From NCBI GenBank assembly GCA_964106645.2, contig OZ067038.1: a stretch of DNA of 64,000 nt. One strand, written 5' to 3'. The notes beneath the pieces are model-generated. The model ran no database searches. It saw only the letters and a program-made list of their open reading frames with translations, and was not told the DNA's origin. Source of the stretch: Podarcis pityusensis. Its lineage: Eukaryota. Positions 33,701 to 64,000 of the stretch are shown here, one piece after another (the stretch's first letter is position 1; every line of letters starts with the position of its first letter). The translations under genes were made by a program, and so were the position numbers.

Positions 33701-36700
33701 CTGTTAGATACAGTTTCTGTGTCCTCACTGAGAGAGAAAAGAGAAGGGGTATTAATTGATTTCCTTTTGTTTTTCTTGCTCTGCACAAGCTCTGGAATGA
33801 AGCACTGGTACATGAGAGTGTATTATTTGTTTACCCATATGTTGTACTGCAGGTACAAAAGGCAGTATTCTACACACAAAGGACAATGCATAATGTGTAA
33901 AAAATATCAGCAAAGTTCATGGTGAATCAAAGTCATCTCAGTAGTCATCCCAAGTAAAACTGAAAAGGCCCTCTCCTGGGTACCCACTTGCTGTATTTCA
34001 GATAGTGGTGAGGGTGGTGATCTCAAAGGAAGGTATCCAAAGTGGAGTAGAAATCCTGGACAGACTCATTTGCAGGGGGTGTGTGTCTTAACATATTGTG
34101 GTCCCAAGATTTTAAATATCAAAGCCAACATTTTGAATTGAGCCTGAGAACAAACTGGTAACCAGTGAAGTTGGTGGAGGATTTGTGTAATACAATTTGA
34201 ACAGAACCCTCCCAGCAACATTCTGGATAAAAGACTACAAAACTGTTCCCACAGAATATTTCACTACTCTTTTCTCTTTCTTTGTGCAAAACAGAATTTT
34301 CCTCAATGGATTTTGTTTTCTTAATATTTTCATGGGTATCTCCCCACTTCAAGTTGTGATTTGTATGTTGAATTAATATCCACACCATAAATGTCTTCAA
34401 AAGGCAATGTCATTCCAGGCCTTTAGAGCCTCCTGATCATATCCCTCATGGATGCAGGTACAGGTGTGGAGAGGGAGATTACAGCCATATGAACAGGGGC
34501 ACTACCCAGACATTATGGAATACACGTGAACAGGCCCTAGACCAAATAGTGCCCCCTACACCTATTCAGCTTTTGAAAGCCCTATTTTTTATTGCATTTG
34601 TATCCCATTTCATGACTTTGAGGTGTAGTATGCATGGATGATTTATTCCTGTCAAATAATGGTGATTAATTGGCAAATGTGGATCTGTCAATCTGTATAT
34701 ATTGATATCACACATAAACATAAAAAACACTAAATTGGCTTCTTCTAAGCTTGTGGGAGCTTCCTAACATTAATTGAAATGTACTAACATCAAGAAATTG
34801 AACTGTACAGCAGTGCTGGCTGGACCAGTATTAAATAGTGTTACAGCTTTACAAGTGAAGATGAAGTGTTTGCATGTTTATTTAAGTTTATTTAAGGGGA
34901 CAGACAGTGGGCAATTTGAGACTAGCATCCCAGGCACTTGTCTAAATTACATCCTCAGGAAAAATAGAAATGTTAAATTTGCCAAAGCTACCAGTATTAA
35001 ACTGCAAATGTCAGTGTTGGTACTGTCCTCATCTCTAAAGGGCAAGGTTTGTGCTTAACCCTAACAGAAGCTCTGCAGGAATTGGTGTTTGAGGTATTCT
35101 TGTTAGAAGCTACAGCTATGCTTTAGTACCTGCAGTCAGTCATTTTACAGAAATGAAACCACAACTACTTTATTATTACTAATGAAGAGTCTAGTATGTG
35201 GAACTAATGAAATGTCACAAGGTGGAAATAGTGGCATTAAAAGTAGCTGGATCAGACAGATGTAGATCTTACTAAGAGTACAGCTCCAGTTCTTACATTT
35301 TTAGCTGCTACTGAAATTTGTAAAGTTTCCAAAGTCCGAAACAATGCTGAACTTTAGGTGCTGATCCATCAAGAATAGTGAAAGTTACTGTAATTACTGA
35401 ATACTAAATAATGTTGATTTTATGTGTGTAGATGCATTTTACTATGAAAACATTCTATCAAACAGCTGTTGGATTTGTAAAATTACTGTCCTATCTTCCT
35501 ACAGGGCTGTAGTTACTGCAAATGTAGGAGAATCCTACTTACACATGCTTTCTCTGCACTTTCACTTTGGGGGGAAAGAAAGGGAGGAAAAAGAATCTGA
35601 ATTAGGGAAAGTTAAAATCCTCTAATGATCTTCCTAACTGCCTCTTTCCAGAAAGCTGCTTATAGCCTAGCAAATGAATTATTATTTTTAAAACCTGTAG
35701 TAAGACTATGAATCACCATGGAGAGATGGAAAACTTACCTGCTAGCTGGAGTAACTGCAGAGTAGTGACCCCCATCCAAAGGGGTGCATGTGGCCATTCT
35801 CTCATGATCAGCCTGAGTGCCATGAACTGGTTGGCTAGGAATCAAGGGCACTCCTCCATCCTTCCCTGGAACCATCAACTGGAGGAGAAAGGGATAAGAA
35901 AATTAGATATTTTAGTATTCATTTAAAAAAGCTCTAGGCTCTTTTATTTTCAAATGTATGGTTGCCTGACTCTCAGTGATAGGTAGCTGACAGCTGGTTA
36001 CATGTTATACTCATGATATGAGAAACAGCCTGGTTCTGCCTGAAGGCTTCCTACCAACAGGTAAAGAGAGCTGGAGAGGATCTCAGTCACTTACAATGAA
36101 GTTAAGACAGGGAGCACCAGAAGAAATTATCAACTAAGGAGAGTGATAACCAGACATGACAAAGAAAGCTGGGCACTGGCCCCACATTCCCAGCACTTGA
36201 CTAGGATATCCTCCAGTTTTCTTTGCTTTATGGCAGAAAGCCTTCAAATTTCTTAACAGGCAAAGCAAGGCTGCTTCTCATGTTGCTCAGCTCTGACTGT
36301 ACCCTACAAGTAAAATAATGGGGTAAGAATGGATAGAGAAATATGTCAACAGTTAAGGAACAGAGTTAGCTATGAGACATATAAAATGGTCTCAAACCTC
36401 TAAGAATACCTGGTGAGGATGTGCAGCACTCAAGCCGCCAGCAAAGACTACTGGGTAGGCCAGGTCAGCTGATCCAACTCCCAGGGCTGTAGGCTGATAA
36501 GAAAGACGAGAGCTGGAGAGCTAAGAAATGAGAGGGGGAAAGGGAAAGGGAGAGAAAGGGAAAACCCCACACAGTCTGAATAATTTTCAGAATTACTGGA
36601 AAAGGCCAGGAAAAGAAATCAGATTTACAGAATAAAATACTAGGCTGGAACTGAGGTAGTCTGAGCCACATGCACACACAAAACCAAACTAAACCAAACC

Positions 36701-39700
36701 AATCCTAAACATCTTTACTTAAAAGAAAAAGTTGCCACCGATTTCAATGGAACTTATTTTCAAGTTGTGTTTAGGATTACCAGGGACCACTCTCAAGCCT
36801 GGATTTTGCTTTAAAATGATGCTCAACACCTACAAATGATGGAGATGACATTCATATAGGACTGAGAGGATAGTATGAAGTATGTTGACCAATAACATGC
36901 TGGACAAGAGAGCAATTACTTAAAAGCTGTGTTTATTATTTGTTTTCTATGAGTTTTTTTTAAATGACTGTTCTGTGTTTTATTGAAATGTTTTATATAT
37001 TATTGTTATATGCTACTTCAACTTCCTATTGATCTTCACTGCCTTTATTAAATAAATGCTACAGAAGAAGCCTGGAAAACCATTGCTCTGACAGCAGACT
37101 CTAACTGTGGATATAGGTTCATTGTCAAACAAATCATGTGACCAACTGCATGCCTCTCTTTGACTCCCACACCAAGAAGGGCAAAGCCCGAACATAAAGC
37201 CTCACATTCTGCATCTCAGTTATAGAGGCAAAAGTTTCCAGAGCAGGCATTTTATAGTCCTCAATGTGAAAGTCCACCTCATAGCCCAAACCTTCCTCTG
37301 CTTAATATTTTAAAAATCTTTAAATTGTATATATAACCTAATAAACAATATCATTAAAACAAGAATACTACATCAAACCCTTAAAAGAACAGTTGTGTAA
37401 AAGCATATAAAACAAATGAAAACAGGATTTCAGGGAATTCAAACAAATAAAAACAGGACTGTTTTCAAAATGACTCAGGTAACATTAAAAAATAGAATCT
37501 ATTGGTATCACACCCCCAAAGCACAGTCTGAAACAGCTACAGAAAAACATTGGACAACAAAATATTAAATTCCTCACTGGGCTATCAGAAAGCTCTGGAA
37601 AAGAAACAGAAGAAATGCCTATGTGGAATACTGGGCTCACAGTAATTAATTAATGTGCTCCAAAAGCCAATGTCTAAGGCCAACTGTAACAAAATTAATC
37701 CACTAGAATAAAATTGACTCCTGAGGTACAATAACTGCTTCAGGCCTTTATAATGGTGACAATAAACTTTTAATTTCTTTAGAGGTGAAAAATATTGTTT
37801 ATTTCCTGTCCCCTGGTCAACTCAAGAAAACACACAGCAATTTCCAGAAAACTATTCCACGAAGCGATCAGTATTCTACGATTGCTCTATAAAGTTTGCC
37901 CTGTAGTCTAAACTACATATTTTCATTGCTTCTTTGCAAATTTCCTGTTCAGCAATAAAGACAATAAATTTATAACTTCAGAGATGTTTGATTCATTTTC
38001 TTTTCTAAAAGGTAGTAAGTGACTGAACAGATTTTGCAAACCTCTAAGCACATTAAACTCAAATGCATGTTTCATTTTAGGCTAACCAGCCTAAAGAGCC
38101 AAATCTAAGGAAAATTATTTACTAGTTAGTGAAAAAATACTTTTGTCATGCACCTTCTTTATTTTAAAGGTGATGTCAGGCCAAACATATTTTTTTCTAC
38201 TATGAACTCACTTGATGTGAAAAGGTCAGCCCCATCAAAGGGCCCTTCAATGTATCCGTCACGACAGGAGGAGGGGTCTGAAAATGTGCTTTAGTGACAG
38301 TAAATACACACTGAACACAGACACACAAAAGGAAAAGAAAGAAAAAGACTTCAGAAAGAAAAACTGAAAAGAGTTGGATGAAGTGAATGTTGGTGAGGAC
38401 TGTGGCTACAGCTATGAGAAACATTCATACATGTCAAAGAGTTGCAGAATTGCAGGGGAGCTGCATGCTTTATAAAGGGTTTAAAATGTCAGGAAACTGT
38501 TGTCTGCTTTTTAAAAAAAGTGTTCCTAGTTGTAGTCTTTATCAATGAATTCACTGCTGATCATATATAACCAACAGCCTGAAACTCTCTTCTAAAGTCA
38601 GATGTTGTAGGACTTTTACTGATCATCTTAACAACTAGGCTTGAATAGCTGTTGGTGACAACTGAGCAAAGGGGGAGCTATATAAAGTGGAGATCACTCT
38701 AAGTCCTCATGCATCTCAGTGATCAAAGCAATCTCCAGTTGCACTAGGCTTGAAGGTTCAATACAAACAGTAAGACAATAGGCTTTGTCAAACACTGCTT
38801 TTTTAAAAAAAGATACCTCACCCTGTTACAAAGCAGCTGAACACAAACCCTAGCAAGAACAGAGCAAAAGCCTTGAGCCACAAACTCATCAGCTGTGCTG
38901 GCTGTCAAAGTCAGAAGCCATGTGTCTTCAGACTAGAGTTTGATTGAGACAACTGAAGTAATAGATTCAGAACCTTTTATAGGAACTTGTTTCTTTTGTG
39001 ATATTTGACTGGGCAACCAGGAGAGCCCCTAAGCATAAGGCAAAAATCTTTAGAGTGCCCCAAAACATACATAAATTGGAACTGGACACTTTGATCCAGG
39101 AAAACAGGGGTGAAGCAGAAGGCTGTGCCCAACCCACAGCTGCCTGTAGAGCATGCTCATCCCCTAGCCTGAAGTTAAGATATGATCCTCAGCAGTTTCC
39201 TAGGATTATGTGCACCACAAGTGTTACATGCCTTCTCCTTCCCTAACAACATCTGTTTACATATCTTCTCTTCTGGAAATGCAATCAGAAACTCATTTCC
39301 ACACCAGGGTTGCCCTAGTGAAGGAGATTCGAAAACTAAACCTTCAACACCAACTGCACAGCTCCAAAGGCTCTTTGCCAGTCTTTTAAATCTATAGAAT
39401 ACATCGGCCAGAATATGGAAAGTTTTAAAAGGAAAAGAGAAGAGAAAAGTGACCCAATCTTTAAGTATTTTACACTTGCCAGGTATAGAGAAAGGTTTTT
39501 AAATTGCAGCAGGATGGAAACAGGTGAATACTATGCAATCAACAGATTGTCAGCAAAATTGATTCAGAACTTAAACTGTACTCTGTGCAATCAAGTGTGA
39601 CCAATACCACATTGTTTTATCTATAAAGAGACAGAATTTTTGTATGCACAAGGAAACTTATCATTAGGCACAGATGTAGTAAACTATCATTTAGTTTTCA

Positions 39701-42700
39701 GTAACCTTCATTTTTGTATTTGTCTAACAATCTGTAATATTCAATTTTTTAAAACGTTAACTAAAAATACAAGTGTCTGTAAACTAAAACGTGCCTTGTT
39801 GACAAACACGACAATACAGCTAGCTGCCTCTCTGAAAGAGGCATGCTGGAAAACATACAATGGTCTCTGAAAAATTGTTTACCTGTGATGGTGGAGAAGT
39901 AGAAAAAGAGGTGGTGCAGGCTTCTTGAGAATCTTCCACTGATGGGTATGCATTTTCCTCACCAGCTGTTCTGTAACAGAAGGAGATAAACTTCAAAATG
40001 GGAATGTTCAATAAAACACAAGATTTAAAGTACATACAGAGACAGACATTGTAGACAGAACATCTGAGTGGAGTTGAAAGGAGAATTATGAAGGAGCTCT
40101 AACTCTTTCCATATCGGGGTTTAAATAAATGCTACTAGAGTGGATTAAGTCTGGATTTTATTTGTCCAGGAGAAGTATGAAACATTATTCACCTATCTGC
40201 CTTTTAGTTTTTGTTAGGAAGATTCTTCCTGATAAATGTTACCTATGCTACCAGCTGTAGAACATAGCTGTCAACGTTTCCCTTTTTTAAAGGGAAATTC
40301 CCTTATTCCGAACAGGATCCCTGACAAGAAAAGGGAAATGTTGACAGCTATGCTGTAGAGATGTACAAAATGTAGCTTCAAAGCCAGTTTAAAGCACCTT
40401 ATCATTGCTTTTGGTCTGACTGCAAAGGAAATGTTTATAAAATAAAACCTTTTACTAAAAGAACCCTTTGATTTTTATGACCACCTGTTATGTATGCTTC
40501 AGTTGAGATTCCTGCACTGCAGAGGGTTGGACTAGAGGACCCTTCAAACTCTAAAATTCTATGATTCTTTGTCAAAATATTATACATTGCAATGGGTTGG
40601 CTCTAGGCTTCCCATAAGTGGAATTCCACTTCCAAGATGCTTCCGCTGGATAAGGAGGGGGTAGTTATTCATCAGTTCCTAGTTTCACTGCTCCTGAGGG
40701 TTGCAAAAAGTGAGGGAGATGGCATACCTCCAGTCCCTCTTCCTCCAGCAGAAGCATCTGCTGGTAAACATTCCCTTTCACAAATTAAAGTAGATCCAGT
40801 ATTTGAAAACTATATGAAATAAATGAACCACGAATGCTTTTGAATGCTGACACTTGAGTGTACAAACACTAAAATCAATGCTTGCAATGCACTGTGTTAG
40901 CTTTCTTCTGCAACTCATTTCACTTAGCAGTTAAGAGTTTTCCCTCTGCATTGTATTTTTTTCTGATTATATACTAATGATGCAAATGAGAATTCATGTG
41001 AACCACTGTCTACATGAACTGGAGAGAGTCTGAAAGTCTAAGAACCCTCTAGACCATATGCCATTCACCCACTTCTTATAGAATAGAAAATGCAGGGTTT
41101 TCCATTTCATGTAAGGACTTTTTCTTTTCTCCACCCAGCAGTGCATGATGCAGAGGCTCTGTATTTGGGAAGAACTGCCTTCACCTATGATCTGTGATTT
41201 GCATTTCCTCACCTGTAATTGCAGGGATGCATGGGTGAGGAGCTGGGGTAGGGACGGTCCACAAAGTGATCAATGATAATCCCCATGATAGGTGGGGTCC
41301 TCTCAAACTGCCTGCAATGCAACAAGCAAATGGTGTTATTCATAAGACTGTGTTCTCTTCTCTGCTGCAACCCCAATTCTGACAGCTAGACTGCTCTTCT
41401 GCATCAGTTAATGGGAAGCAGAGCATCCCCACAATTCAACCCTGCAACTCCACACATGAACAAGGAAATTGGTGTTCAGGAGCATGACTCAGGGCTACCA
41501 AACAATATCACTCCACAAAATCTGAGAAGCCCAGGATTTGGGGCTTCAGAAATGGAAAGTGTCCTGGAAAATGTGGATTAGTTTGACTCTCATGCTCTCA
41601 CCTGGTAGACATGAAAGCTAGGTTGATTCTGTAGGCACAGGACAAAGTGATGGTGCCTAATGGAGTACCCACTGTCCCAACACGGACGGTCTGAAATCCT
41701 ATGGAAATAGAAGAAAAATTACCAATAATAATAATAATAATAATAATTATTATTATTTAATAGTCAGCATTAAAGATAAAGATTGATTTGCCATTTCTCT
41801 GTTGCTGAATGACAATTTATGTCATTCTGCTAGCAACAAAGGGATAACAATATGCTCTCCTGCCATATCCCTTACTGAAGGCATACCTCTTCCTAATAAA
41901 TCTCTCAGCATCTTTTTTTAAAAAGTTGTTTTACTAATTGTGCTAGTCCATGTAGGGACTGATGCACGTGCTGTTAATAAATGTTATATTGCTATTATTG
42001 ACCTCCAGTAAGGGACTCTCCTAATTTCCCCTACATCCAAAATCCTTCATGTTACTGGTATATAGTAATTGGTTTTTTTTTAAGTCTTCAGCTAGTTTGT
42101 TCATTGGCAAACCATACCTTCTCCCAAGCCACTCAGCTGAACTTCTCCGAAGTATATCCTATGAGAGAGAGAGAGTGCACATTAAATATAGTCTACTAGG
42201 TAGTATAAAGTCAGGTGCACTAAGTGTTTATCATTGAGCTGGGTCTTCTGATTTACAAAGTACTTTACAAGATTAAGATTCTTTACCTATACAATATTTA
42301 TCTGAGTATTATTGCTTTTTACTCATGAGTACATTGTTGTTAGCCGCCCTGAGCCCGGCTTCGGCTGGGGAGGGCGGGATATAAATAAAAATTTATTATT
42401 ATTATTATTAACTGGGACTGAAAGACAGCAGTTTGTCCAATGCAGTCATCCAGTAAATTCATGGCTGAGCTGGAAATCTGAACCCACAGCTCATATTCCA
42501 TTCACTGGTCATCAGATGAACCAGAAGTACCATTGCAAGACCCAATTCAGGCTTGCCCTTTCTATTTAAAAAGGATCCCCCCTCACCTGCCAAACCTTTA
42601 GCGGTTCGAAAACTTTCTACCAGACATGTTCTAAGACAAAGATGGGAGAAAAAAGTTATGTTTTAACTAAGGATCCTTTTAAAGGAAACAACTGAGGAAG

Positions 42701-45700: not shown

Positions 45701-46688
45701 ACATTTTTGCATGGTTCTATGTCTGCAGTTCTGCTTCAGTCTTATGTTTCCTGTATCTTAACATGACACAAGTATGGGAATAATGGGATTGCTATGAGGA
45801 ATATAGTTTACCCAGTCAGAGCCTGTTGGCGAGGATGATGATCGAGTACAGATTTTTTCACCAAGTCGGGCCTGGACAATCACTTGTACAGTCTGAAAGA
45901 GAAAATATGAGATTTGTGAGAAGTCAAGATTTGTTACTAAACAGGAGAGAGATGAGATGAAACACAGAAACAAAAGTAACCGCTTTCACTACTTCAGTGT
46001 TTTTGTTGGTCTTCCATGATTTTATCCTTCCCCTCTTGCTGTCAAGATCATTCACCTCTCTTGTTGGTAAAACCATACATTTCTCCTTTAATCTGTACAT
46101 ACGCTTTACCAGCTTGCTCTGCAACATCTATACTAATCTCAGTCAATCAGCGCAGGACAATCAATGGGTGCTATAGGATGCTGTCTATAAGCAAGGCTTT
46201 GATATCTAGATACCTCCCTTCCCTTCCCTAACCTCACCACTGTGTGGCTTCCTGCTTTGTCTACCTGGAATCCCAGTTCCAAACTCCCTTTCCTTGACTC
46301 TTAAGCATATGTGATTCAGTCCCAAGGTCTGCAGACAAGTCACCTGACAGTCAAATAAGAGCTTGTCATATTCAAAAGCTGGATGACTATGGGGCTTTGT
46401 TTTGTTTTGATACTATAATCTATATTTTTAGAAATCCAAATGAAGTCAGAGATCAGCAGAAAATGTTGTTTTAAAAGGTTTTGACATTGCATCAATCAAC
46501 ATTATGGCACGGCAGCATGTGGCATTGCAATAAGTACAGGGAGTTTTGGTTTGTCACAGTGCAACAGGAATGTGGATTTTTTTTTTTTTTTACTTCTATT
46601 CCAAAAAACAAAAAATTACCTTCAGAGCAAAAAATTTGATGAACTTGTCCAGGTCCTTCCTGTCCTGGGAGCTGAGATCAGTGTCCAT
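30661..46688 (-). CDS. ATG13: Autophagy-related protein 13 (HORMA domain, LIR, ULK1-binding C-terminus), 17 coding exons, 550 aa longest form
   Basis: complement(join(30661..30738,32011..32139,32919..33035,33215..33292,33610..33727,35739..35878,36410..36520,38212..38310,39883..39970,41213..41311,41602..41698,42118..42158,42861..43001,44256..44302,45010..45129,45812..45892,46620..46688)) = 1653 nt, all GT-AG. Translation [36 protein letters not shown]...DDFVMVDF...[10 protein letters not shown]. Confidence 0.97.
32011..32139 (-). CDS. ATG13: ATG13 coding exon 16
   Basis: [43 protein letters not shown]. Confidence 0.95.
32919..33035 (-). CDS. ATG13: ATG13 coding exon 15 (LIR motif DDFVMV)
   Basis: [39 protein letters not shown]. 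Confidence 0.95.
33215..33292 (-). CDS. ATG13: ATG13 coding exon 14
   Basis: [26 protein letters not shown]. Confidence 0.94.
33610..33727 (-). CDS. ATG13: ATG13 coding exon 13
   Basis: [39 protein letters not shown]. Confidence 0.95.
35739..35878 (-). CDS. ATG13: ATG13 coding exon 12
   Basis: [46 protein letters not shown]. Confidence 0.93.
36410..36520 (-). CDS. ATG13: ATG13 coding exon 11 (111-nt, cassette in mammals)
   Basis: [37 protein letters not shown]; phase 0-0. Confidence 0.92.
38212..38310 (-). CDS. ATG13: ATG13 coding exon 10 (99-nt cassette exon)
   Basis: [33 protein letters not shown]; phase 0-0; resembles the insert of the longest mammalian isoform. Confidence 0.9.
39883..39970 (-). 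CDS. ATG13: ATG13 coding exon 9
   Basis: [29 protein letters not shown]. Confidence 0.94.
40263..40352. mobile_element. 90-bp hAT-type MITE
   Basis: 24-bp TIRs catagctgtcaac(g/a)tttccctttt; 8-bp TSD ctgtagaa/ctgtagag. Confidence 0.85.
40505..40570 (+). mobile_element. CR1 3-prime tail remnant
   Basis: gggttggactagaggacccttcaaactctaaaattctatgattct. Confidence 0.7.
41213..41311 (-). CDS. ATG13: ATG13 coding exon 8
   Basis: [33 protein letters not shown]. Confidence 0.95.
41602..41698 (-). CDS. ATG13: ATG13 coding exon 7
   Basis: [32 protein letters not shown]. Confidence 0.95.
41724..41757. repeat. (AAT)n/(TAT)n microsatellite just upstream of the ATG13 exon 7 acceptor
   Basis: Direct reading. 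Confidence 0.9.
42118..42158 (-). CDS. ATG13: ATG13 coding exon 6
   Basis: [14 protein letters not shown]. Confidence 0.93.
42861..43001 (-). CDS. ATG13: ATG13 coding exon 5
   Basis: [47 protein letters not shown]. Confidence 0.95.
44256..44302 (-). CDS. ATG13: ATG13 coding exon 4
   Basis: [16 protein letters not shown]. Confidence 0.95.
45010..45129 (-). CDS. ATG13: ATG13 coding exon 3
   Basis: [40 protein letters not shown]. Confidence 0.95.
45228..45390. mobile_element. Degenerate Tc2/pogo-like MITE
   Basis: ta|ctgtatttactcaaatgtaatgcacac with inverted gtgcgcattagattt and gtacacattagattcg copies. Confidence 0.5.
45812..45892 (-). CDS. ATG13: ATG13 coding exon 2
   Basis: [27 protein letters not shown]. 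Confidence 0.95.
46620..46688 (-). CDS. ATG13: ATG13 coding exon 1 (exon starts 46701)
   Basis: [23 protein letters not shown]. Confidence 0.95.
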
Positions 46689-48321
46689 TGCATATGGAAA
46701 TCTAGAATAGAACAGGCATAAATATTCCAATTTGTTACTAATAGAAGAGCTTACTATATTATTTAAACTAATCAAAGTTAATGAACTTCAGGAAACTATG
46801 GTAATCTTAAAGAGACATAAAACTAATCTTAACCTTGCTGAGATAAATTTGTGTGATTTACATTAATAAACTACTAGCCACGAAGAGAATATGCACCAGT
46901 GAAAAGTTTATGTGCATTTTGAGAATCAGCTCAGTTGTTATGGGAACTGGAGCAGGAAAAGATCACATTTTATTTAAGCTGCTGAACTTGCTAGAACTAA
47001 GTGCCAAATGAGTTTGGTCATTATATGCATTTAAAGAAGCACATTTGTACAAAGCAATGAGAGTCTACACATGGAAGTCATTCTTTGCATAAAAATTGAC
47101 CTATGTAGGCAGCAGAGCAGTACTGGCAGGTAACTGACCCCCTGATGGCAGTATAGCTGATGATATTTTTATTAAGTCCTCCAATTGTGTTGCTGGAGTG
47201 GATATGTGGGCAGACCTTGCATTTGTCATGTCACAGCCCTACTGTAGCTTAGTCATACTTATGAGCAGGTGCTAGTCTGTGAAAGTTCATGCCATAATAA
47301 ATGTCTTCAAGATACCCCCAGACACTCCCCACCATCCCATCTCTCCACCATCCCAGAATGCTTCACAGGTACATTCCTTGAAACAATATAATGTTAAAAT
47401 GCAATGGACTCAGCACTGGGCAAAAGTGCAAAGTACACCTGAATAATACTGTCCCTTTCTCTAAACAGGTGTTATATTTGATAAACTATTTCATTTCTTG
47501 ATAAATGAACAATGATACCTACCTAGTTATCATGAAACTGTGACAGATAAAATGCAGTGTAGAACAAAAAGGGCCAACAGATTTGACCTAAGCTGTAGTT
47601 AGGAAAATTTGCATGTTTGCTTGCTGAAAATAAAGTTTTATATATCAGAATTTGACCAATATATGGATCATGAGCTGGATACAGACTAAGTCGTGCTTGA
47701 GAAGACCCACTGAAATCAATGGAACACAAATTGACTAACTTGTCCCCTGAATTTGAGTGGATCATGCTAAACATCACACACTATTTTTCTCAGTGATCTA
47801 CCAATGTTACTGAACACAGCTGGAGCCTTAATGTCAGAATATTTATTTTCAGCCCAGAGGATAACATTATCTAAAAGGTGATATTTTTTACCTATGAGCT
47901 AGCCAGGTCAGGGAACTATTGGGTTCTAGGCTTCAGAAAGCTTTTTTGCAACTGACATCCCCATCCTCACATGAAAATCAATACACACAAACTGTAGCAC
48001 TTATCAAAATTTTCATTTTTGAAGTTTTGAAGAAAAACTTCCATTATATAATGGAAATTAACACAAATTCACATATGTGACACACCTTCTTTGTGATGGT
48101 CTATTGTATATTTCAGACATGCTTGTGCTTTACTGCATGGTGGTAATTTCCACGGGACCAATCCTACTCTAAACCCTTGTTGCTTTTAGTGCCTCTTTCC
48201 TGAGTAACTATAATACACAGCATATCTAAAGCATAATATTTCATTTATTATTATTTATATAACACTTTTCAGGAAAATCTCACAAAGCGGTTTACAAAAA
48301 AAATTAAATTAATAAGTATTA

Positions 48322-48965
48322 CCGTATTTTTCGTCCCATAGGACGCACCTAGTTTTTTTTTGGGGGGGGGGAAATAAAGGAAAAATTTTTTCCCTTTATT
48401 TCCCCCCCAAAAGCAGGTCGGGGAAACTGAACAAGGTCGAGGAACAGCGGGATGGCGGCGCTGCGCCTCCCTGCTGTCCCCCGAGCTTGTGGGGCTGGCC
48501 GATGTCTGCCCGGCGCGCGGGGCGCTCTGCTTCAGGGCGCCCCGCCCGCTGGGCAGCAGGCTGCTATCCGCAGCGTGGGGAGCCCTGCAGGGAACTCCTG
48601 CAGGGCTCCCCACGCTGCGGATGTGTTCCCGAAGCGCCGGGCGCTCTGCTTTCAGGGTGCCCGGCGCTCCGGGAAGCAGGCTGCTATCCGCAGCCTAGAA
48701 ATCCCTGCAGGACCTCCCGCAGGCCTGCCTAGGCTGCGGATGTGTTCCCGAAGCGCCGGGCGCTTGCTTTCAACGCGCCCGGCACTCTGGGAAGCAGGCT
48801 GCGGATGTCTTCCTGAAGCCTGGAGAGCGAGAGGGGTTGGTGCGCACCGACCCCTCTCGCTCTCCAAGCTTCAGCGAAAGCCTGCATTCGCCCCATAGGA
48901 CGCACCCAGATTTCCCCTTCATTTTTGGAGGGGAAAAAGTGCGTCCTATAGGGTGAAAAATACGG
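48322..48965. mobile_element. Young Tc2/pogo-like non-autonomous DNA transposon with GC-rich internal palindromic repeats
   Basis: TIRs ccgtatttttc(gtcccatagg/accctatagg)acgcac; TA TSD (48320-21, 48966-67); CpG-rich interior. Confidence 0.9.
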
Positions 48966-49312
48966 TAATTAAAACGGAGTAATAAAGCAGCAAAAACAAA
49001 TTACAATGACTTTTTTTCCAAAAGCTAGATATTGCCTTCTCTCAGATCAAAACTGTTCTTCAATAACACTGTGGTGGCAGGTTTCTTTTTACAGGGTAAG
49101 GAAACAGCTTTCTTTGCTCTCCATTCTGGCAGACACATTTAAAACAAAGGGTGTTAAGAAATGAGTAACCTCAACCCATATAGTATTTCAATGAGAATAC
49201 AGGATGGACAATTATACTGGTTATGTCTCTCAGTGCAGTGATTCTAGAACCTTCACAAGGTACTAGAATATCAGAGATACTTCATGATTCTCAGGTTACA
49301 GATCATTCACTT

Positions 49313-49505
49313 TGGGCCAAGCTGTAGCTCAGTAGTAAGGCATTAACTTTGGAGGCAGAAAGTTCCAGGTTTAATCACCAGTTAAAAGCACTTCGGTAAC
49401 AGGAGGATGTGAAAAACTTTGGTTCAACAACTTTGAAAGCTACTGCCAGTCAAAACAACCAATACTGGGCTAGATGCACTCAGTATAAGACAGTTTTCTA
49501 TTTCA
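49313..49505 (+). mobile_element. tRNA-derived SINE (Squam3-like), degraded
   Basis: tagctcagtagtaagg A box, ccaggtttaatc B-box remnant, ctgccagtc...aatactgggctagatg body. Confidence 0.65.
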
Positions 49506-49902
49506 CAAGGCTTTCCAATTAACAGCAGCATTGCTTTCTCTAGTGCAAACTCCTTAAAAGCAGGAAAACATTTTAAAAGAGCCCAATTAAAAAATTCAAA
49601 TAAAAGCCAAACACATCTGGTTGACACACAAAGCATTTATGAACCTGCTCCTCCTTTGCCTGTTTACCATGTTTTGAGAGTAGGGAGCAGTTGTCTTGGC
49701 AACATTTGCATCACAATCTCCTAAGAGGAACAAGAAACACTAGATAGAGCTCCAACTTAGGGGTTGATTCTTTCAGGAGAAATAATTATCCTTGAATTCA
49801 AGTCCAGGCAGATCTAATGTATGCCACCTCACCATTAGTCTTTCTTGGACCCAGAGAACTGAGTGTAATGTTAAAGGCAAGAAATTTCAGCCTGCTCAGT
49901 AC

Positions 49903-49947
49903 CTAGGAAGGAGAGTTTGTGGGAATCCACTGTAAGTTACTGATTTC
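49903..49947 (-). other. ATG13: Candidate 45-nt non-coding (5-prime UTR) cassette exon of ATG13
   Basis: Minus strand: ttttttaattcag|GAAATCAGTAACTTACAGTGGATTCCCACAAACTCTCCTTCCTAG|gtactg. Confidence 0.45.
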
Positions 49948-50469
49948 CTGAATTAAAAAACAACAGCTACATGTAATAATAATCATAAATTATTTAACAA
50001 CATTAGAAGAAAACTGACTATATAATATTTTGGGGCAGTAAGAATATGTTGCAGTATGGAGTGCTTCTGTATGGTGCTCCAGTCAGCCAAGCCTTCCTTC
50101 CTTACACTCCTGGCATCACCCACCTCAGTCAACGTACTCAGCCTTCAATGGGCTGTTTTGACTCCCCTGCCTCAACCTAAAGATTTTTAGTACTTTTGCA
50201 AGCTGGGATACCCAGAAGCCTGCTGATATCTCTCTCTTGTGCATGCATGGTAATGTTTTGATTACATAAACACTGGCACTTGGATAATTGAATTTGCTCT
50301 TAGTACAGATTCTATGATAGAAAGCATATGTTTATAAACTTGACAAGCTGGATCTCATTTTGTTCTGGAATGAAAATTATTTCTGTTACATTATGAACAT
50401 ATATTTCTAAATTTGGAGAAAATACTAAATATGATGTCCTAAAGACCTATGGTTCACTTATCCCCATTT

Positions 50470-50681
50470 CTTCCAGTAGCACCTTAAAGACCAACTAAGT
50501 TAGTTCTTGGTATGAGCTTTCGTGTGCAAGCACACTTCTTCAGATACACACTGTGTATCTGAAGAAGTGTGCTTGCACACGAAAGCTCATACCAAGAACT
50601 AACTTAGTCGGTCTTTAAGGTGCTACTGGAAGGAATTTTTTTGTTTTGACTATGGCAGACCAACACGGCTACCTATCTGTA
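50470..50681. mobile_element. Penelope-like retroelement terminal fragment with inverted duplication
   Basis: 81-bp inverted arms (50470..50550 / 50552..50632), PLE-type tail gactatggcagaccaacacggctacc, 14-bp TSD acttatccccattt (50456..50469 / 50682..50695). Confidence 0.85.
50555..50592 (+). ncRNA. Minimal type I hammerhead ribozyme motif (PLE type); mirror copy on minus strand at 50510..50547
   Basis: GUAU-CUGAAGA-A-GUGUGC-UU-GCACAC-GAAA-GC-UC-AUAC: helix I GUAU/AUAC, catalytic core, helix II, palindromic AGCU in place of helix III. Confidence 0.7.
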
Positions 50682-52079
50682 ACTTATCCCCATTTATTAT
50701 ATTTCCTAAAATAGTGAGACAGCTTACAAGAATTCCCCATTTTGTACCTCCTGAGGGCTGCTTCCAATGTGCATAGTATGTGTACCTACAACACTGCCCA
50801 CTATGTGCAAGAACCATATTCTGTTTGATTTGTGTGCGCACTACAGATGTCATCAAAAGCTACGGCTGGCTCTGGGGTCTCTCAGTGAATGCAGCATACA
50901 TGAAAATAAACTAGAGCAGACATAAAATTCTAACACTTTACAAGGAACCCTATTGGCAGATATAGTACACAGAGGCATATGCCTTAATTCCTGTAAATAT
51001 GAAGCAGCCCTATTTTAGGTTTTGAGGTAGATTTTCTTCTTGATAGGAACCAAACTATGATTATCAACTTTTTTATTCTTGTTGTTACAACAAACTGGAA
51101 GGTAGCAAACATTGCTTAGTCCCTAAGTTAATATAAGTTCTAGGGGAAAAGAAATGTAATTTTAAGGCAAATAAAAATATGTTTCTAAAATGCCTTTTCT
51201 CTTTTATTGAAATTCAAAAAAGCCAGTGATTCTAACTAAACTATTTTTTGTTTATGCGAATGGCCTAGTTTTTCCATTACGCAATAGGTATTTTAAAGAC
51301 CCAGAGCCACATTCCAATGCAGAGTTAGGCACACCAAGACTGAAATACTAAAAGTATTAACTAGAGAGAAAGTCCCACTCCTCGTAGCAGAACTGCACTG
51401 TTTTGGTTAAGATTTCAGTGAACTTAAGCATACTTGAATTTGTGTTGAATTGTGGCCCAAGAGTTAGAAAAGCCTCACATTATTTCAGTCACATTGTTGC
51501 CTGAAAGATTTAGAAATATCTCTAGATCAAAAGACCATGAGGTCAGATCACATGATGAAGACAAAGTATGCAGCATAAAGACTGGCAGCTTGATCCTCAA
51601 AGGAACACATGATGTAGAACTAGTTAGTGAAAATAGGCCCTGTGTTACTGGAATCCTTTGAATACTGTTGCTTTAAAGCAGCTTAATCAGTTATCAACAG
51701 CAGATCTGAAACAACGTCAGTCAACAAAACTCCCTTTTGGCAAGGTCATGAAATAAGTTACAGATATATTCAAGCTCCCACATCACACATGCTAAGAAAT
51801 TTAGTGGTGCAGCTGGGTTTAAACCCAAGGGCATGCACGTGCCACGTCATACGTTGACTACATCACATCCTCAAGGAGGTTTTATTTTCAGTACTCCTTA
51901 GGTTCTGAAAGGTTTGTCTGGAAATAAACAGTCCTCACAGCCCTATTTTCCCTACTACCCACAACTCTATACAATCAGACTGTGATCCGCTGCTCTCCCC
52001 ACCCCTACCTACTCTGTGGGAGCAGACCCATCACCCTACTCCAGCAGAAGCCTAGTCGAAACCCATCAAATTATGTGCA

Positions 52080-53330
52080 TCTGAGGTGCAGGGGGGAATT
52101 ACCTGCGGGGAGACGGCTGAGGTGACGGCTCGGGGTCTCATTCCGGGGACGAGCCCGGAGGCTATCTTAGTCCCTCCTCATGGTCAGACCCAGTGGGCCT
52201 CTCCGAAATCCTCGCGGCTGGTTTCGACTCGAAGGGCTGGAAGGTGCCGCCCTCGCCGCCTCCTGTGGCTTCTTTCCTCAGAGAGGAGACGTGGCAGTGA
52301 ACGTCCTTTGCTGGCGTCACCTCAGGAACCCCAAGACCCCTCCGGCCCCGCAGACTTGAGGGCCGCCCGCCTCTCGTCTCCCTTCTTCCTGGCGCACCTT
52401 TCGCGCTCGGCTCCGCTGCCCAATTCCCGCGCGGGACAAGGCTTTTTCCTCAGCCCCGTCTGGGAATATGGCGGGGGGGGGGGTGGTTCGTAGATTCGTA
52501 GCCCAAGCCTGCCGGGAAAACAGCGCCTGCTGGGGGGAAGGGATGTTGGGACCTTTAGTCCCGAGGCGGGTGACCAATATCCGGCCTCCACTCGCCGCTG
52601 CCCAGCGCTTGGTCCAGCCCAGGGAAGGGGTTGGGAATGCCCGAGGCTGGCTGGCCCGCGTACGAGTGGAGTCTCCGCTTGCGCCGCCCCTTCGAGGAAG
52701 GCTCTGAGGAACCGGCGCCGGCCTTCGAGGAGAAGTCGCTCAGTCTGCCGGCCCTACGAGCCGACCTGCCCGTCGTCGCAGGTTACACAGCCAGAGTGTC
52801 CCTCACGGCCGCAGACTCCCCCTGCAGCCGCCGACACCGCCGCCATTGCTGCTGTTTGTTTTCATCCGCTCAGGGCGAGCGGGGAGCGCTGACTCCGCAT
52901 CCGCCGCGGCACTTTCCACAGAGACGAGGACCCGCCTCCCGTTATCAGCGACCCCCCCCCGCCCCAGTGGGCCAGCCCGCAGCCGTTAATTATCGGCGGG
53001 AGGCGAGAATGCCCACCTGGGAGGCTTAAAGGGGTGAAGGGCCGGTCTCGTGAGGAATCTGCGATTGGGAATGAACAGGCCGGGCGTCGTGAGAGGGACT
53101 TGGAGCTCCGCCTCGGGATCCGGGTGCTGGGAAGGGACTTCGGGACGGGCTCCCTTGCGCTATCGGGGTAAATCGGGGGCCCGGCGGAGAGGGAGGTGTG
53201 GACGCGTAGCCGCGCCGCGAAACATGCTTATATCCTGCGCTTTCAGTCTTTCTCCAAGCGCAGAACCCCTCTCCCGCTTCCGTCCACCCTTGCGCCCCCC
53301 CCCAGTCTTCTCCCCGCTTCTCTAGGGAGG
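52080..53330. promoter_or_regulatory. CpG-island bidirectional promoter shared by ATG13 (-) and HARBI1 (+)
   Basis: Very high GC/CpG against a CpG-poor background. GC boxes, CCAAT boxes (~52574 and reverse ~53064), no TATA. Head-to-head gene arrangement as in mammals. Candidate HARBI1 exon-1 donor GGG|gtaaat at 53168. Confidence 0.9.
52103..52920 (-). other. ATG13: ATG13 first (non-coding) exon region with uORFs; 5-prime boundary approximate, internal splicing possible
   Basis: CpG island, strong donor CCGCAG|gtaatt at 52102, YY1-like ATGGCGGC near 52846. Confidence 0.6.
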
Positions 53331-53346
53331 AACTTGTAGTCCACCA

Positions 53347-53700
53347 CAGGGCCGGATTTAGGTTTGATGAGGCCCTAGGCTACTGAAGGTAATGGGACCC
53401 TTTATATGTCCAGCTGTCCTTTGTCAACAACAAATTGCCGCTGTTTTTTGTGTTGAATACTGTATATACTATATAGTAATTTATGGACCTAATAGGTATC
53501 TAAAGCCGTTTGCACATAACAAATAGGAGCCTACACAACACAAAATACTGTTGCTGTATGTAGGTTTTATTTTATTTGTTTTTTATCTTATATTTTGGAA
53601 ATGTACATCCATTTTTTTCCCCTTTAAATTTTTTTGGGACCCCCAAGAGAGTGGAGCCCTAAGCTATAACTTGTTTAGCTTATACGTAAATCGGGCACTG
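53347..53700. mobile_element. hAT-type MITE at the edge of the promoter CpG island
   Basis: TIRs cagggccggatttagg / cagtgcccgatttacg; exact 8-bp TSD gtccacca (53339..53346 / 53701..53708). Confidence 0.88.
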
Positions 53701-54571
53701 GTCCACCAGATGGTGTTGCACTACCGTTGCCACCATTGGCCATGCTGGCCGGTGCTGATGGGGAGAGTTGGAGCGGGTGAGATTTCCCACAACTACTGTT
53801 GGGTTACCCTGCTGCATGTTCCGCTTTCACAGCATCCTCCAATAAGGCAAATTCATGCCCCTTTCGCAGAGACCTGTCTGCTTTTCAGCTCTCTTTTGCA
53901 GTTCCTGCTTCATCAGGTGCCCTTCACTTCCCACCACAAACAGTTTAATGCCTCGTTGCCATTCTTCTCCCTCTCTTGCACCCCTTCACCTTCCGTCATT
54001 CATGCTTTGGGTCCTTTAGGAAAGTCATTCCTGGTGGCTCAACCGAGAAGCGTGAATGAAACCTTGAAAGTGACACATGAGAACCCAGCTGGATTAGACC
54101 ACAGGCCCATTTGATTCTGTATTGTGCTCTCACACAGTGACTAACCAGATGCCTGGAGATGGCCTCCTTCTTTGGGTGCACTCTCTTCTTCAAACATAGT
54201 CTTGAGTGTCAGACGTGTATTTTGCTGCACAAAGGTTATTGCATGTTTTTGTAGACATACTCATATAGATGTGTCTCATGTATGTTACAAAACAAAACAT
54301 TGCATTCTCAGACATTGATAATGATGCTACATTTCCTCCTAAATCTATTTACAGTATCTCAAAATGATGATAGGGATATTAATGACATATCAGTTACAAC
54401 AGTTAATTGTGGGCTTAACAACTAGCTGCTAAATACCAGGAATAATTTTTTTAAGTAGACATATTGCCTCAGCTGTTACTGAGACAAAATAATATATTAC
54501 ACATATGTCAGTTGCAACTACTTTTGTATTCATCGCTGGAAAAAGGAAAGCATTTATCTTTTAGTCTCTTG

Positions 54572-54740: not shown

Positions 54741-56692
54741 TTGGTAGCAGAGTCTGTATGTATGCTGGCACGTCTTCTGAGTTGGTTTATTGACGTAGGT
54801 AAAACCTGCCTTGTTTTTGACAACTTGCCTGGTACTCATGGGTGACCAAGAAATTCATGTAGGTGAATGAACAGGTTGGTGGAGGAGGAGTGGGTTACTT
54901 GGTCTCTTTTCTGCCAGTCCACTTGGTTTCTTTGCTAGCCAGGCAGGAAGGAAAGCCTATTCTTTCATAACCACGAAATAGGCTAGTGAAGGAGGAGCAG
55001 ATATACCCTTCCTTCCTACATGCCCTTTCACTTAGCAAGCTGGTTAAAAAAGCTGACTTCTAAGAGTCTAGTAGCTTGCATTTTCATGTTGGCCACAGAA
55101 GAGGGGTCTTTCCCTCCTCCATGGCCACCATGGCAACACAGACTTCTGGCTTCTTAGTAAGCTGTGGTGATGAGCTAATTACTTTTGTGGGCTTATTTTC
55201 AATGATGGCTAATACTAGGTAATCCCTCAGTTGTTTGGGGGAATTCACACCTTTGGTATCAGATGTTCATAGAGGAACCAGACCAGATTCAATCCATTGG
55301 TTTTTGGTTTTTATTATTATTAAATTGTTAATCTTGTGAGTGCACAATAACACAACTATTATGAGAGAGGGGATGACAATCAAGCATTGTCCATACATTC
55401 AGAGGGACAGAATGTTATGTTTATGTAATGCAACACATGGGTATATGAAGAGGGGGAAATGCTTATTACATGAGGAGTGAGGAGATAATGCAAACTATTA
55501 ACATTTTGGCTCTTTCCAGCAATGGACTCCAACTGAGAACAGAAAAATTCTCTTGTAGAGATGCCACCCTAAACTTATAGGCTATATCTGATACCAAAGT
55601 GCCCCTTACATTGCTATTTAATTAGATACCTACCTGCCTCCTTTGTATTATAACTACTGGGAGTCACTGGTGGACATTAAAAAACAGGATACAAGAAATA
55701 CAGTATTACTTTGTTGAAACTTTGATTTTGCAAGATTGGAACTCCTTGGTTCTCAAGACAGCTCCTTGCCACTAGAATATGACTGACTTGTTTAACAATG
55801 GAAAAGAGTGGTTGGGTGAAGCATCTCTGTTTATATAACTTGCTCTTCTTAGGCACATAGTTTCAGTACATTTATCAACTCCAGTTGTTCCAGAATTCTA
55901 GATTTTGTGTGCACTTGGACAAACAGAAAAAATATCCTTGAGGGACAGCACAGCTTATTAACAAGCATTAGAACAAAGCAACTCTTTGTTTCTCAGTGCT
56001 TTACGTTTCTAAAAATATCACCAGCTTAAGTTTTGCCAATTCACACCCTCATGCCTCATACAGCCAATTAATTTTAATGCAGTAACACATAAAGAAAGAA
56101 ATTTTCCTAGTCTTGTTTAACCGGTTCAGAGAGAGAATGTAAACATAGCACTAATTTATTGTGAAATATGTACTCAACAGTTCCAATTTTGCGTATGACC
56201 CAAGGTCAGTACTAATTGTGCATTCTTGCTTTCTCAAGAATGTCCCATGACCCTGTGTGAAATTATATACAGCTCCAAAAAAAATTCCACTGGAAATTTC
56301 CCAGAACTACGACCATGATTCATTGGCTCTTTCATTGAAATTAATAGCAGAATCCCATGGAGATAATATTGTCAACTTTTCTGGTAGAATGTTATCTGGT
56401 AGGACTCAGCCACGTTAATAGGACTGTGGGAAAGTTTTCTATATTTCTTTTCCTTGTGTTCTCAGTTGTATGATCTGGTCTCATAGCAATTAGTGTAAAT
56501 GCCAAGTTAAATTAAAGTGTACATTTGTAAACTAATTTCAAAACCCTATTTACTTAAGCCAATAGGTTTATTTGTGTGTAATTAGTATGAAATTGACAGT
56601 AGAGTCAAGTAGGCTGTTAGGATCCATGTCCTCAATTTTCCTTTTTTTTTGCTCCAGTGTAGGTGAGTAGAGAGAAGAAAGATCAACCCATC

Positions 56693-57362
56693 ATGGCTGT
56701 TCCCATAGCCATTCTTGATTGTGATCTCTTGCTATATGGTCGTGGGCATCGAACACTTGATCGTTTCAAACTGGAGGATGTGACTGATGAATATCTGGTG
56801 TCTATGTATGGCTTCCCACGTCACTTCATTTACTATCTGGTGGATTTTCTGGGTGCCAGCCTTTCTCGTCCTACACAACGATCAAGGGCCATTAGCCCAG
56901 AGACGCAAATTCTTGCTGCATTAGGTTTTTACACTTCTGGTTCTTTCCAGACTCGCATGGGAGATGCCATTGGCATCAGCCAGGCCTCTATGAGCCGTTG
57001 TGTTGCCAATGTTACTGAGGCCCTGGTGGAGAGGGCATCTCAGTTCATTCATTTCCCAGATGATGAAGTGTCGGTGCATCATCTGAAAGATGACTTTTAT
57101 GGGCTGGCAGGTATGCCAGGGGTACTAGGACTAGTTGATTGCAACCATGTCGCAATAAAGGCACCCAGTGCTGAGGACTTGTCATATGTGAATAGAAAGG
57201 GCCTTCATTCTTTAAACTGCCTGATGGTTTGTGACGCCAGGGGAATGCTACTGAGTGCGGAAACACACTGGCCAGGCAGCTTGCAGGACTGTGCTGTGCT
57301 GCAGCAGTCAGCCCTCAGGAACCAGTTTGAAGCTGGCATGCACAAAGATGGCTGGCTACTTG
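56693..57362 (+). CDS. HARBI1: HARBI1 coding exon 1
   Basis: ATG in cccatcATGg context; ends WLL-G|gtaagt. Confidence 0.95.
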
Positions 57363-58448
57363 GTAAGTTCTTTCTCATGACTGGCATCTTTGAAAGTCTA
57401 TTTTGGTGGAATTTCTGTTTGGTTCTGTGACATGCCACATAACATTTATGTGTCAAAACTGCAGATTTTACAGTTCTCCCTCTATAAAGATAAATCAAAC
57501 AAAGGTAGCATGAAACAGAATAATAGGGTAGCATAAAACATAGAATCTTAGAGTTGGAAGGGACCCCAAGGGTCATGTAGCCCAACCCCTTGCAATGCAG
57601 GAACCTCTGCAAAAGCATCAGTGACAGATGGCCATCCAACCTTTGGTTAAAAACCTTCAAGGAGGGAGAGTCCACCACTTCTCGTGGTCAACAGCTCTGA
57701 CTGTCTGAAAGTTTTACCGAATGTTTAGTCTGAATCTCCTTTCTTGCAACTTGAAGCCATTGGTTCGAGTCCTACCCTCCAGAGCAGGAGAAAACAAGCA
57801 TGCTCCCTCCTCCATGTGGCAGGCCTTAAGATATTTGAAGATGGCTATCATATCTCCTCTGAGTCTCCTCTTTCCCAAGCTAAACATACCCAGCTCCTTC
57901 AAGCGCTCCTCATAAGGCTTAGTTTCCAGACCCTTGATCATCTTGGTTGCCCTCCTGGCTTCATACACCTATCTGGCTTCATATAGATGCCTGGTTTTAT
58001 TATCAGGTGATGGAATTATTTGCACTCTCCTGTCCCTGTTTGGTTTGTGATCTTTCTTTTTCTTTTGACAGGTGATAGTTCATTCTTTCTTCGCACTTGG
58101 CTAATGACCCCTCTGCATATTCCTGAAACGCCTGCAGAGTGCCGGTATAACATGGCACATTCAGCCACTCACAATGTCATTGAACGTACATTCAGGACAA
58201 TTCGGTCCCACTTCCGTTGCCTGGATGGGTCAAAGGGCACGTTGCAGTATTCTCCCGAGAAGGCCAGCCACATCATTCTGGCTTGCTGTGTGCTTCATAA
58301 CATTTCTCTAGAGCATGGACTGGATGTGTGGTCTTCCCAAACGATGGGACAGATGGAACAGCCAGAGGAAGAATATGAACATATGGAATCACTTGACTCT
58401 GAAGCTGATCGAGTTCGTCAGGAATTATTACTCGCTCATTTTAGCTAA
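56693..58448 (+). CDS. HARBI1: Putative nuclease HARBI1 (Harbinger transposase-derived, DDE), 2 coding exons, 348 aa
   Basis: join(56693..57362,58072..58448) = 1047 nt. Translation [27 protein letters not shown]...LVDCNHV...WLLGDSSFFL...NVIERTF...ELLLAHFS. Confidence 0.97.
57536..57960 (-). mobile_element. CR1 LINE 3-prime fragment in HARBI1 intron
   Basis: [44 protein letters not shown]...[19 protein letters not shown] and ttccaactctaagattctatg tail. Confidence 0.93.
58072..58448 (+). CDS. HARBI1: HARBI1 coding exon 2 (stop)
   Basis: ttttgacag acceptor; [14 protein letters not shown]...ACCVLHN...HFS-TAA; AATAAA at 58537 and 58769. Confidence 0.95.
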
Positions 58449-62749: not shown

Positions 62750-63900
62750 TGATTACCAAGGGGACGAGGGCGATGTGAAGGTGAACATCTCCCCTCCACG
62801 TATCCCTCGGCTAAGGGCTCGTTTCGCAGCAGACGATCTCAGAGCCCCGGAAGGAGGCGCCTCCTGACGCAGGCCTCTCCGTGGGCCCCTCCCCCTGCCT
62901 TCTTTCCCCGCCCTCCCGGTCGCGAGGACAGCGCCGATCCCGCTCTCTGCGTTCCATTCGTCAGCTCTGCTCCGCTTTTTGCGCCTGCCGTTCGATTGGC
63001 TCGGCACTCGGCATCTCCGCACTCGGCTGCTTAGGTGCTCGGCTAGGCGCCCTGGCCTTGGTAGTAACTCGGAGCAGCAGCAGCGGCGGCAGAAACTGCA
63101 GGGGGAGAGGCCGCCGTCGGATTTGGGTTGTCCCTCCCTGGACCAGGCCCCGACCAGCCCGGAGCGTGCCTCACGCCACCGCTCCGGTCCTCTCCGGGAT
63201 TCGAGGGCGCCAGGCCTTGGCCAGCCCCCCCCCGCCGCCTCAGGTAGGCTCTGGGCCTAGAGGCTCCGGGCCTGCCTCCTCTCTAGGGGGGTTGCCGGGC
63301 TCCCTCAACCGGCGGGGAGAGAAACGCGGCGGGTGGGGTCGGCCGGGGAGTTGGGGAGCCTGAGGCGAAGGGCGGGACGCGTTTCAGGAAGGGTCTCCTG
63401 GCGGCGTCGAGTTCCTCCGCTCCACCCCGCCCACCGCGGAGCCTCCCGCGGCCGCGTCTTTCTCGCGAGGAGGCTGCCTGGCTGTGGCCCCCGCGTCCTC
63501 CCCGCTCGGAGAACCGGCTAGCCAGACTCCTGGCGGCCTTGGCCTTCCTTCCCGGGACCCGCAGAGCGAGGCTCTGAAGGCCCGCCCTGTGTTGTTTCCG
63601 GAGCCGTCGGTCTAAATACGGGGAGGCAGCGCTTCCTTAATTTAAAATACATTCGGTTCCCCTCCGCCCACGTAAACAGTCGGCCGCACGATTTTTTCCC
63701 CTTTTTCAGGGATGCGAGGAGGAATTTTCGCAGCGGGATGTCTGTTTTCCTGTGCGAATGTGGCTCCGAGCCTGCCCGCGCTTCCTTGAGAGTAAGGCCT
63801 GGTGGGCACGGGGACCACGACGGCTTGGCTCTGAGGAAACGAGCACGAGATTGCAGGGAGAGTTGGCTGTTAGCTCGCTGGGGTCTCTCTGTACACGGGT
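62750..63900 (+). promoter_or_regulatory. AMBRA1: CpG island; probable AMBRA1 promoter and non-coding exon 1 (donor at 63244)
   Basis: CpG island with reverse CCAAT (~62995), CRE-like TGACGCA (~62865) and donor CTCAG|gtaggc. Gene identity is inferred only from conserved synteny ARHGAP1-ATG13-HARBI1-AMBRA1; no coding exon lies in the window. Confidence 0.7.
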
Positions 63901-64000
63901 CCTAATTAATTAATTATTATTAATTAAGAATAATTAAATGTGAAGTGGGTTGTGAGGCTTTGTATGTAGAAGAAGGTATTTGGTTCGGAGAACTCAAGCC

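Follow-up and report, generated by a model that had tools for sequence, protein, structure and literature searches.

The window analysed here is a stretch of 64,000 nucleotides (nt) from contig OZ067038.1 of the lizard Podarcis pityusensis, and our subject is the 5' leader of the gene ATG13, which it carries on the minus strand. The coding exons of ATG13 extend from 46701 to approximately 30664, as placed by tblastn with squamate ATG13 proteins, and the closest named ATG13 proteins in this comparison are those of lacertid lizards. The AUG at 46688 is the point at which 106 of the 107 matches with a recognisable start begin. Ahead of it lies a spliced leader with five to six further AUGs, three of which are placed as in the human gene.

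The ATG13 leader and its splicing

The RNA evidence consists of assembled contigs from four sequencing runs, representing four organisms and three studies, all of them lizard relatives approximately 96% identical to the window in exon 1. They were taken from 24 listed run entries, of which 18 were guessed to be RNA and none is recorded as such. None of the four is known to come from the window's own species, and that they are RNA was only guessed, although the splice joint itself shows splicing. Assembled contigs lose rare variants and give neither transcription start nor strand, and the longest exon-1 contig may contain antisense RNA of the neighbouring gene. A first-pass annotation, made from the letters of the window without database searches, had named a junction between a donor at 52103 and the first coding exon at 46701. 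This joint, with GT..AG on the minus strand, was found in one contig of each of the four runs at a depth of 27-180, so the donor at 52103 is in use. The coordinates and translations given in that annotation are all correct, namely the 4-codon upstream open reading frame (uORF) at 52181-52167, the 25-nt gap after it, and the 13 codons that lead from the AUG at 52141 up to the donor. A letter-for-letter check also confirms that, with direct splicing, the overlapping open reading frame (ORF) stops at 46678, and that the proposed exon 49947-49903 ends in a TAG located 13 nt ahead of the main AUG.

The contigs run continuously from 52103 up to 52794, 52833, 52984 and 53082, one end point per run, and exon 1 is therefore at least 690 nt long. 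The human 15-amino-acid (aa) uORF discussed below begins at nt 13 of ENST00000524625, which places the homologous lizard start just above 52846; from this we infer that the 5' end of exon 1 lies near 52860-52880. The middle of exon 1 is, to judge by its indels, drifting freely: a 19-nt insertion at 52330 is present in three of the four relatives and absent from the window's species, with further small indels nearby. The features of the leader are collected in Table 1.

Table 1. Features of the ATG13 leader and first intron; positions are those of the window.
Feature	Position	Strand	Remarks
12-codon uORF	52862..52900	minus	Weak context; part of the mRNA only with a transcription start upstream of 52900; covered by contigs in 2 of 4 runs
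20-codon uORF (MKTN...)	52803..52865	minus	Weak context; counterpart of human c11norep68
30-codon uORF (MAA...)	52754..52846	minus	Strong context; counterpart of human 15-aa uORF
Non-coding exon 1, GC-rich island	52103..52880	minus	Contig cover; 5' end placed by inference
4-codon uORF	52167..52181	minus	25 nt before AUG 52141; from sequence
Overlapping ORF, start and first 13 codons (MRPR...)	52103..52141	minus	AUG 39 nt before donor
Intron 1	46702..52102	minus	5401 nt, GT..AG; skipped in 4 of 4 runs
Candidate 45-nt exon	49903..49947	minus	Unsupported
First coding exon	46620..46701	minus	82 nt, including 13 nt of leader; overlapping ORF stop at 46678
Second overlapping ORF, 23 codons	46622..46693	minus	Predicted; weak-context AUG 5 nt before main start
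ATG13 start codon	46686..46688	minus	Strong context; sequence and tblastn

Upstream start codons

The AUGs of the spliced leader stand at 52900 (if included), 52865, 52846, 52181, 52141 and 46693. Among all AUGs of the leader, only 52846 and the main start have a full strong context, and 52846 is likely the first efficient start. The first-pass annotation had described a leader of two AUGs; both are there, but those at 52865, 52846 and 46693 had been missed. With direct splicing, the ORF from 52141 is out of frame with ATG13, spans 20 codons and ends 11 nt into the coding sequence (CDS). The ORF from 46693 shares its reading frame with the human overlapping ORF, and its AUG may be shared with birds, as far as a comparison at the amino-acid level can tell. 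Leader bases 46689-46701 (minus strand) read in frame as F-P-Y-A, and the bird ATG13 model P0107 also has P-Y-A.

The pair of AUGs at 52181 and 52141 lies in single-copy sequence with one genomic match only. In the relatives, the 4-codon uORF ends in TAG instead of TAA and has a changed fourth codon (differences at 52167 and 52171 in all four runs). No loss of an AUG is among the listed differences of the relatives, which comprise 33 of 35 substitutions in run X1, 18 of 26 in X3, 14 of 32 in X8, 11 of 28 in X17, and 12 of 36 indel rows. Compared with 5000 dinucleotide shuffles, which ignore the selection against upstream AUGs in real leaders, the number of upstream AUGs is at chance level (6 against 4.9 +/- 1.8), and an overlapping ORF is present in 54% of the shuffles. 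A uORF of at most five codons within 100 nt before an overlapping ORF occurs in 3.8% of them.

Three further ideas about this region were tried and rejected. An in-frame N-terminal extension of ATG13 is countered by a stop in frame at the 52141 AUG, and the single extended protein among 107 looks intron-derived. For a structured RNA element, the predicted fold around the AUG pair is not special (z 0.15), and there is no Rfam match in 46000-54000. For a conserved uORF peptide, no Pfam match was found, and the similarity to human is confined to the first residues. A metagenome scan for the 5' AUG-pair motif returned 17 loci, none like the window beyond the motif and none of them ATG13 by tblastn, and thus yielded no additional leaders from vertebrates; in a protein search with the plus-strand open frame that runs across AUGs 52181 and 52141, none of the 38 candidates scored.

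Comparison with human and mouse ATG13

In human, five ORFs detected by ribosome profiling (Ribo-seq), c11riboseqorf49-53, share a single AUG located 40 nt ahead of the donor of exon 1 (PMC10032668 supplementary file 2; PMC4739776 supplementary file 1). When that donor is joined directly to the first coding exon of 82 nt, a 44-aa overlapping ORF results (PMC10032668, PMC4739776). Depending on alternative exons, c11riboseqorf49, 50 and 53 are closed uORFs, while 51 and 52 overlap the CDS, one of them being longer (PMC10032668). The mouse overlapping uORF is 135 nt, equal to the human length (PMC4739776, whose supplementary files 1 and 2 list mouse matches). The human 15-aa uORF ENST00000524625_13_58 has 1810 P-sites and is also translated in mouse and rat (PMC10032668 supplementary file 5). 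Several human ATG13 uORFs are labelled primate-young in the catalogues. The 'conserved' label of c11riboseqorf51 denotes amino-acid similarity (PMC10032668), which can be explained by its overlap with the CDS.

The lizard leader resembles the human one at several points. Both have an out-of-frame AUG before the exon-1 donor (39 nt in lizard, 40 nt in human), followed by a next exon of 82 nt, and the overlapping-ORF peptides begin MRPR and MRAR, respectively. Both also have two 5' AUGs 19 nt apart (52865 and 52846 in the lizard) whose peptides start with MKTN and MAA. In contrast, the distance from the MAA start to the donor is 744 nt in lizard and 302 nt in human, the lizard overlap is in the other frame and has 20 codons as against 44, and the lizard adds both the 4-codon uORF and the AUG at 46693, which stands only 5 nt ahead of the ATG13 start. 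Cassette exons, documented in human, are shown in none of the lizards. The uORF peptides of the two species diverge after 3-4 residues. Taken together, three lizard starts are very likely orthologous to human ones by position, with neither frames nor peptides kept. The 4-codon uORF had no counterpart among the catalogued human ATG13 ORFs, in catalogues that are not exhaustive for very short ORFs.

Comparison with ATF4 and response to stress

The first-pass annotation had proposed that the 4-codon uORF and the overlapping ORF form an ATF4-type switch that raises ATG13 translation in stress, while noting that the spacings are shorter than in ATF4. The ATF4 leader has a short uORF followed by an overlapping uORF (PMC5972666), and ATG13 has the same arrangement: a short uORF, which may permit reinitiation, comes first, and a putatively inhibitory ORF then runs across the main start in another frame. 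The remark on spacing was right: in ATF4, the inhibitory AUG lies 87 nt and the CDS 184 nt after uORF1 (PMC11790910), whereas in lizard ATG13 the corresponding distances are 25 and 77 nt, so that the main AUG itself sits approximately where ATF4 has its inhibitory AUG. Unlike ATF4, lizard ATG13 also has further uORFs upstream of the short one, and human ATG13 shows mild basal repression and no induction in the integrated stress response (ISR).

The proposed stress induction was not borne out by a scanning model run over 1458 assumed parameter sets. With the full leader, the modelled ratio of stress to basal output has a median of 0.89 (0.43-1.29); the short leader of the first-pass annotation gives 0.90, and an ATF4 control 1.62 (0.85-8.25). 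Ratios above 1.2 arise in 7% of the sets and above 2 in 0%, compared with 68% and 30% for ATF4. At spacings of 25 and 77 nt, the model does not give the ATF4 pattern, in which most 40S subunits become loaded ahead of the inhibitory AUG in resting cells and beyond it in stressed ones. Output via the short uORF is highest when the loading rate is 0.022 per nt, as opposed to 0.008 for ATF4, and lower ternary complex would therefore tend to reduce ATG13. Removing AUG 52141 raises modelled output 2.0-fold (1.4-3.5), so this AUG probably acts as an approximately twofold brake; removing AUG 52181 changes output 0.99-fold (0.26-1.37).

Two human ISR datasets likewise contain no induction of ATG13. In arsenite-treated HEK293T cells, ATG13 translation efficiency (TE) has a fold value of 0.22 and a Z of 0.62, with ATF4 at 1.3 and 8.16 and a threshold of 4 (PMC4383229). 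Under tunicamycin, ATG13 TE is 1.06-fold of the median of 48 background genes, compared with 6.41-fold for ATF4, and for tunicamycin against tunicamycin plus ISRIB the values are 1.15 and 7.73 (PMC4341466). The basal ratio of ribosomes to mRNA is 0.57 of the 48-gene median for ATG13 and 0.06 for ATF4 (PMC4341466). In mouse, Denr depletion leaves Atg13 TE unchanged (log2 fold change 0.03, p 0.79; PMC6547434). A review table lists a rise of ATG13 mRNA with tunicamycin through ATF4 in LNCaP cells (PMC7082396), which points to a transcriptional coupling of ATG13 to the ISR. Because the human and mouse data concern orthologues with no known 4-codon uORF, they weigh only indirectly against a lizard-specific stress switch.

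A candidate cassette exon in intron 1

It had also been proposed that splicing decides the fate of the overlapping ORF, with inclusion of a 45-nt exon ending it before the main AUG. The general idea is documented in the human orthologue by c11riboseqorf49-53 (PMC10032668); the 45-nt exon itself found no support. Neither 52103-49947 nor 49903-46701, nor any other joint touching the exon, is among 15 of the 16 joints, and contig depth is 0 in the bin of the exon in all four runs, a weak kind of absence behind which a minor isoform could be hidden. Its donor scores 3.6 bits, lower than any of the 17 real donors of ATG13 (4.5-12.8), on a matrix trained on ATG13's own sites and thus biased toward these donors. 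The acceptor, at 7.0 bits, is inside the real range of 4.4-15.4. Of 4603 intronic AG/GT pairs, 38 score at least as high as the 45-nt exon, and the overlapping ORF would also end early in 21 of 23 plausible pseudo-exons, so the stop in the exon is no sign of design. Including the exon changes modelled basal output 1.17-fold (1.02-1.8). More generally, no cassette exon closing the overlapping ORF was found in the four contig sets, from which rare variants drop out.

A 53-nt AG/GT pair at 49668-49720 (minus strand) scores 17.0 bits, compared with 10.6 for the 45-nt exon, and would close the overlapping ORF; no joint for it is present in the contigs of the four runs.

Weighing the explanations

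We favour, with moderate confidence, the reading that the spliced multi-uORF leader is a constant damper of ATG13. The sequence, the 52103-46701 splice in the relatives and the matching human positions are direct observations, and the lizard ORFs are probably translated, as their human and mouse counterparts are. The strong 5' uORF at 52846 and AUG 52141 would between them capture most ribosomes, leaving ATG13 to those that leak past the upstream starts or resume scanning after them. The 4-codon uORF would have almost no effect at rest; when ternary complex is scarce it would, if it acts at all, lower output. Several points count against a damper of this kind. Basal damping in human appears mild, in that 13 of the 48 background genes are lower than ATG13, these genes being what remains of 59 rows at the top of a table of 10,943 rows once low-count and duplicate rows are taken out, and mouse Atg13 has a log2 TE of 0.13 (PMC6547434). 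A low Z, such as that under arsenite, may stem from low counts, a point made in general by Andreev et al. (PMC4383229), and the human ISR data come from orthologues with no catalogued 4-codon uORF and are no direct test of the lizard pair. The scanning model omits stalling, queuing and structure. Retention of the AUGs in the relatives is only partly visible in the listed differences, and the lizard-mammal conservation is a comparison of two end points, these lizards and mammals.

The AUGs could instead have been kept for other reasons, as promoter elements of an island shared by ATG13 and HARBI1 or as splice signals at the exon end, or be passengers, with little effect on the protein. We consider this unlikely. 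The chance-level AUG count speaks for it, as do the different overlap frames in lizard and mammal (39 against 40 nt), the early divergence of the peptides, the fact that both 5' AUGs fall where transcription is inferred to begin, the human and mouse TE that is not strongly depressed and the unremarkable fold at the AUG pair. Under established scanning rules, however, an AUG that lies in a fair context 52 nt ahead of the main start should divert scanning ribosomes; the translation of the human and mouse counterparts also argues against this reading. A rheostat set by splicing, in which certain tissues include an intron-1 cassette exon, be it the 45-nt candidate or a different one, that closes the overlapping ORF and thereby alters ATG13 output, would be compatible with a constant damper and has precedent in the human exons that do so to the orthologous ORF (PMC10032668). 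The acceptor of the 45-nt exon is within the real range, and rare isoforms would be hidden in contigs. However, the direct joint is the only one in all four runs, the donor is below every real one (these having trained the matrix), an ORF-ending stop is the default among pseudo-exons and the predicted effect is small, which makes such a rheostat very unlikely in our estimation. Delayed reinitiation as in ATF4, with 52141 catching ribosomes at rest and being skipped under eIF2-alpha phosphorylation so that ATG13 rises in stress, we regard as highly improbable. The order of parts is the same (PMC5972666), the pairing of a short uORF with an overlap is uncommon among shuffles, and the stop of the 4-codon uORF survives the TAA/TAG change in all four relatives. 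Against these stand the short spacing (PMC11790910), the modelled ratios, the position of the 4-codon uORF, which is not first in the leader, and the lack of induction of the human orthologue.

Surrounding genes and other features of the window

Two genes flank ATG13: a HARBI1-type gene (Pfam DDE_Tnp_4 at 56663-58445) lies divergent from it, and a CRAL-TRIO/RhoGAP gene (Pfam) convergent with it; we take these two neighbours to be HARBI1 and ARHGAP1. Low-depth contig pieces from two runs cover 53004-53374, upstream of ATG13 exon 1, with a repeat beginning at approximately 53347, and may represent the first exon of the divergent neighbour. A second GC-rich island at 62750-64000 is presumably the AMBRA1 promoter, going by synteny. 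In ATG13 itself, the coding exons 41213-41311 (99 nt), 38212-38310 (99 nt) and 36410-36520 (111 nt), all on the minus strand, are variably present in lacertid protein isoforms. Intron 1 contains, at 48318-48969, an element bounded by terminal inverted repeats of 31 bp and enclosing a 119-bp tandem array, which looks like a non-autonomous DNA transposon, many contigs matching its ends, and, at 50466-50636, a near-perfect palindrome with 85-nt arms (98%) within a repeat of very high summed contig depth.

Implications

We found no study of ATG13 leader or uORF function in the literature covered, which excluded subscription papers and bioRxiv supplements. In yeast, uORFs of ATG genes are reported to affect translation (Yang et al., cited in PMC12885402), a likeness to lizard ATG13 in that uORFs occur in autophagy genes, albeit in a different kingdom. 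Human and mouse ATG13 uORFs are already catalogued by Ribo-seq, and no new kind of regulation would be involved. What is new is the apparent conservation of three ATG13 start codons between lizard and mammals and an extra 4-codon uORF, so far seen only in these lizards.

As a distinctly speculative extension, an inhibitory AUG close to the exon-1 donor of ATG13 could set the supply of the ULK1 complex across amniotes, with the lacertid 4-codon uORF adding a response to ternary complex, either a bypass at rest that fails in stress, the reverse of ATF4, or a true stress switch. The lizard matches suggest that the upstream starts of ATG13 are far older than the peptides they encode, and the AUG before the exon-1 donor would be a sensible target for testing what determines the cellular amount of a core subunit of autophagy initiation.

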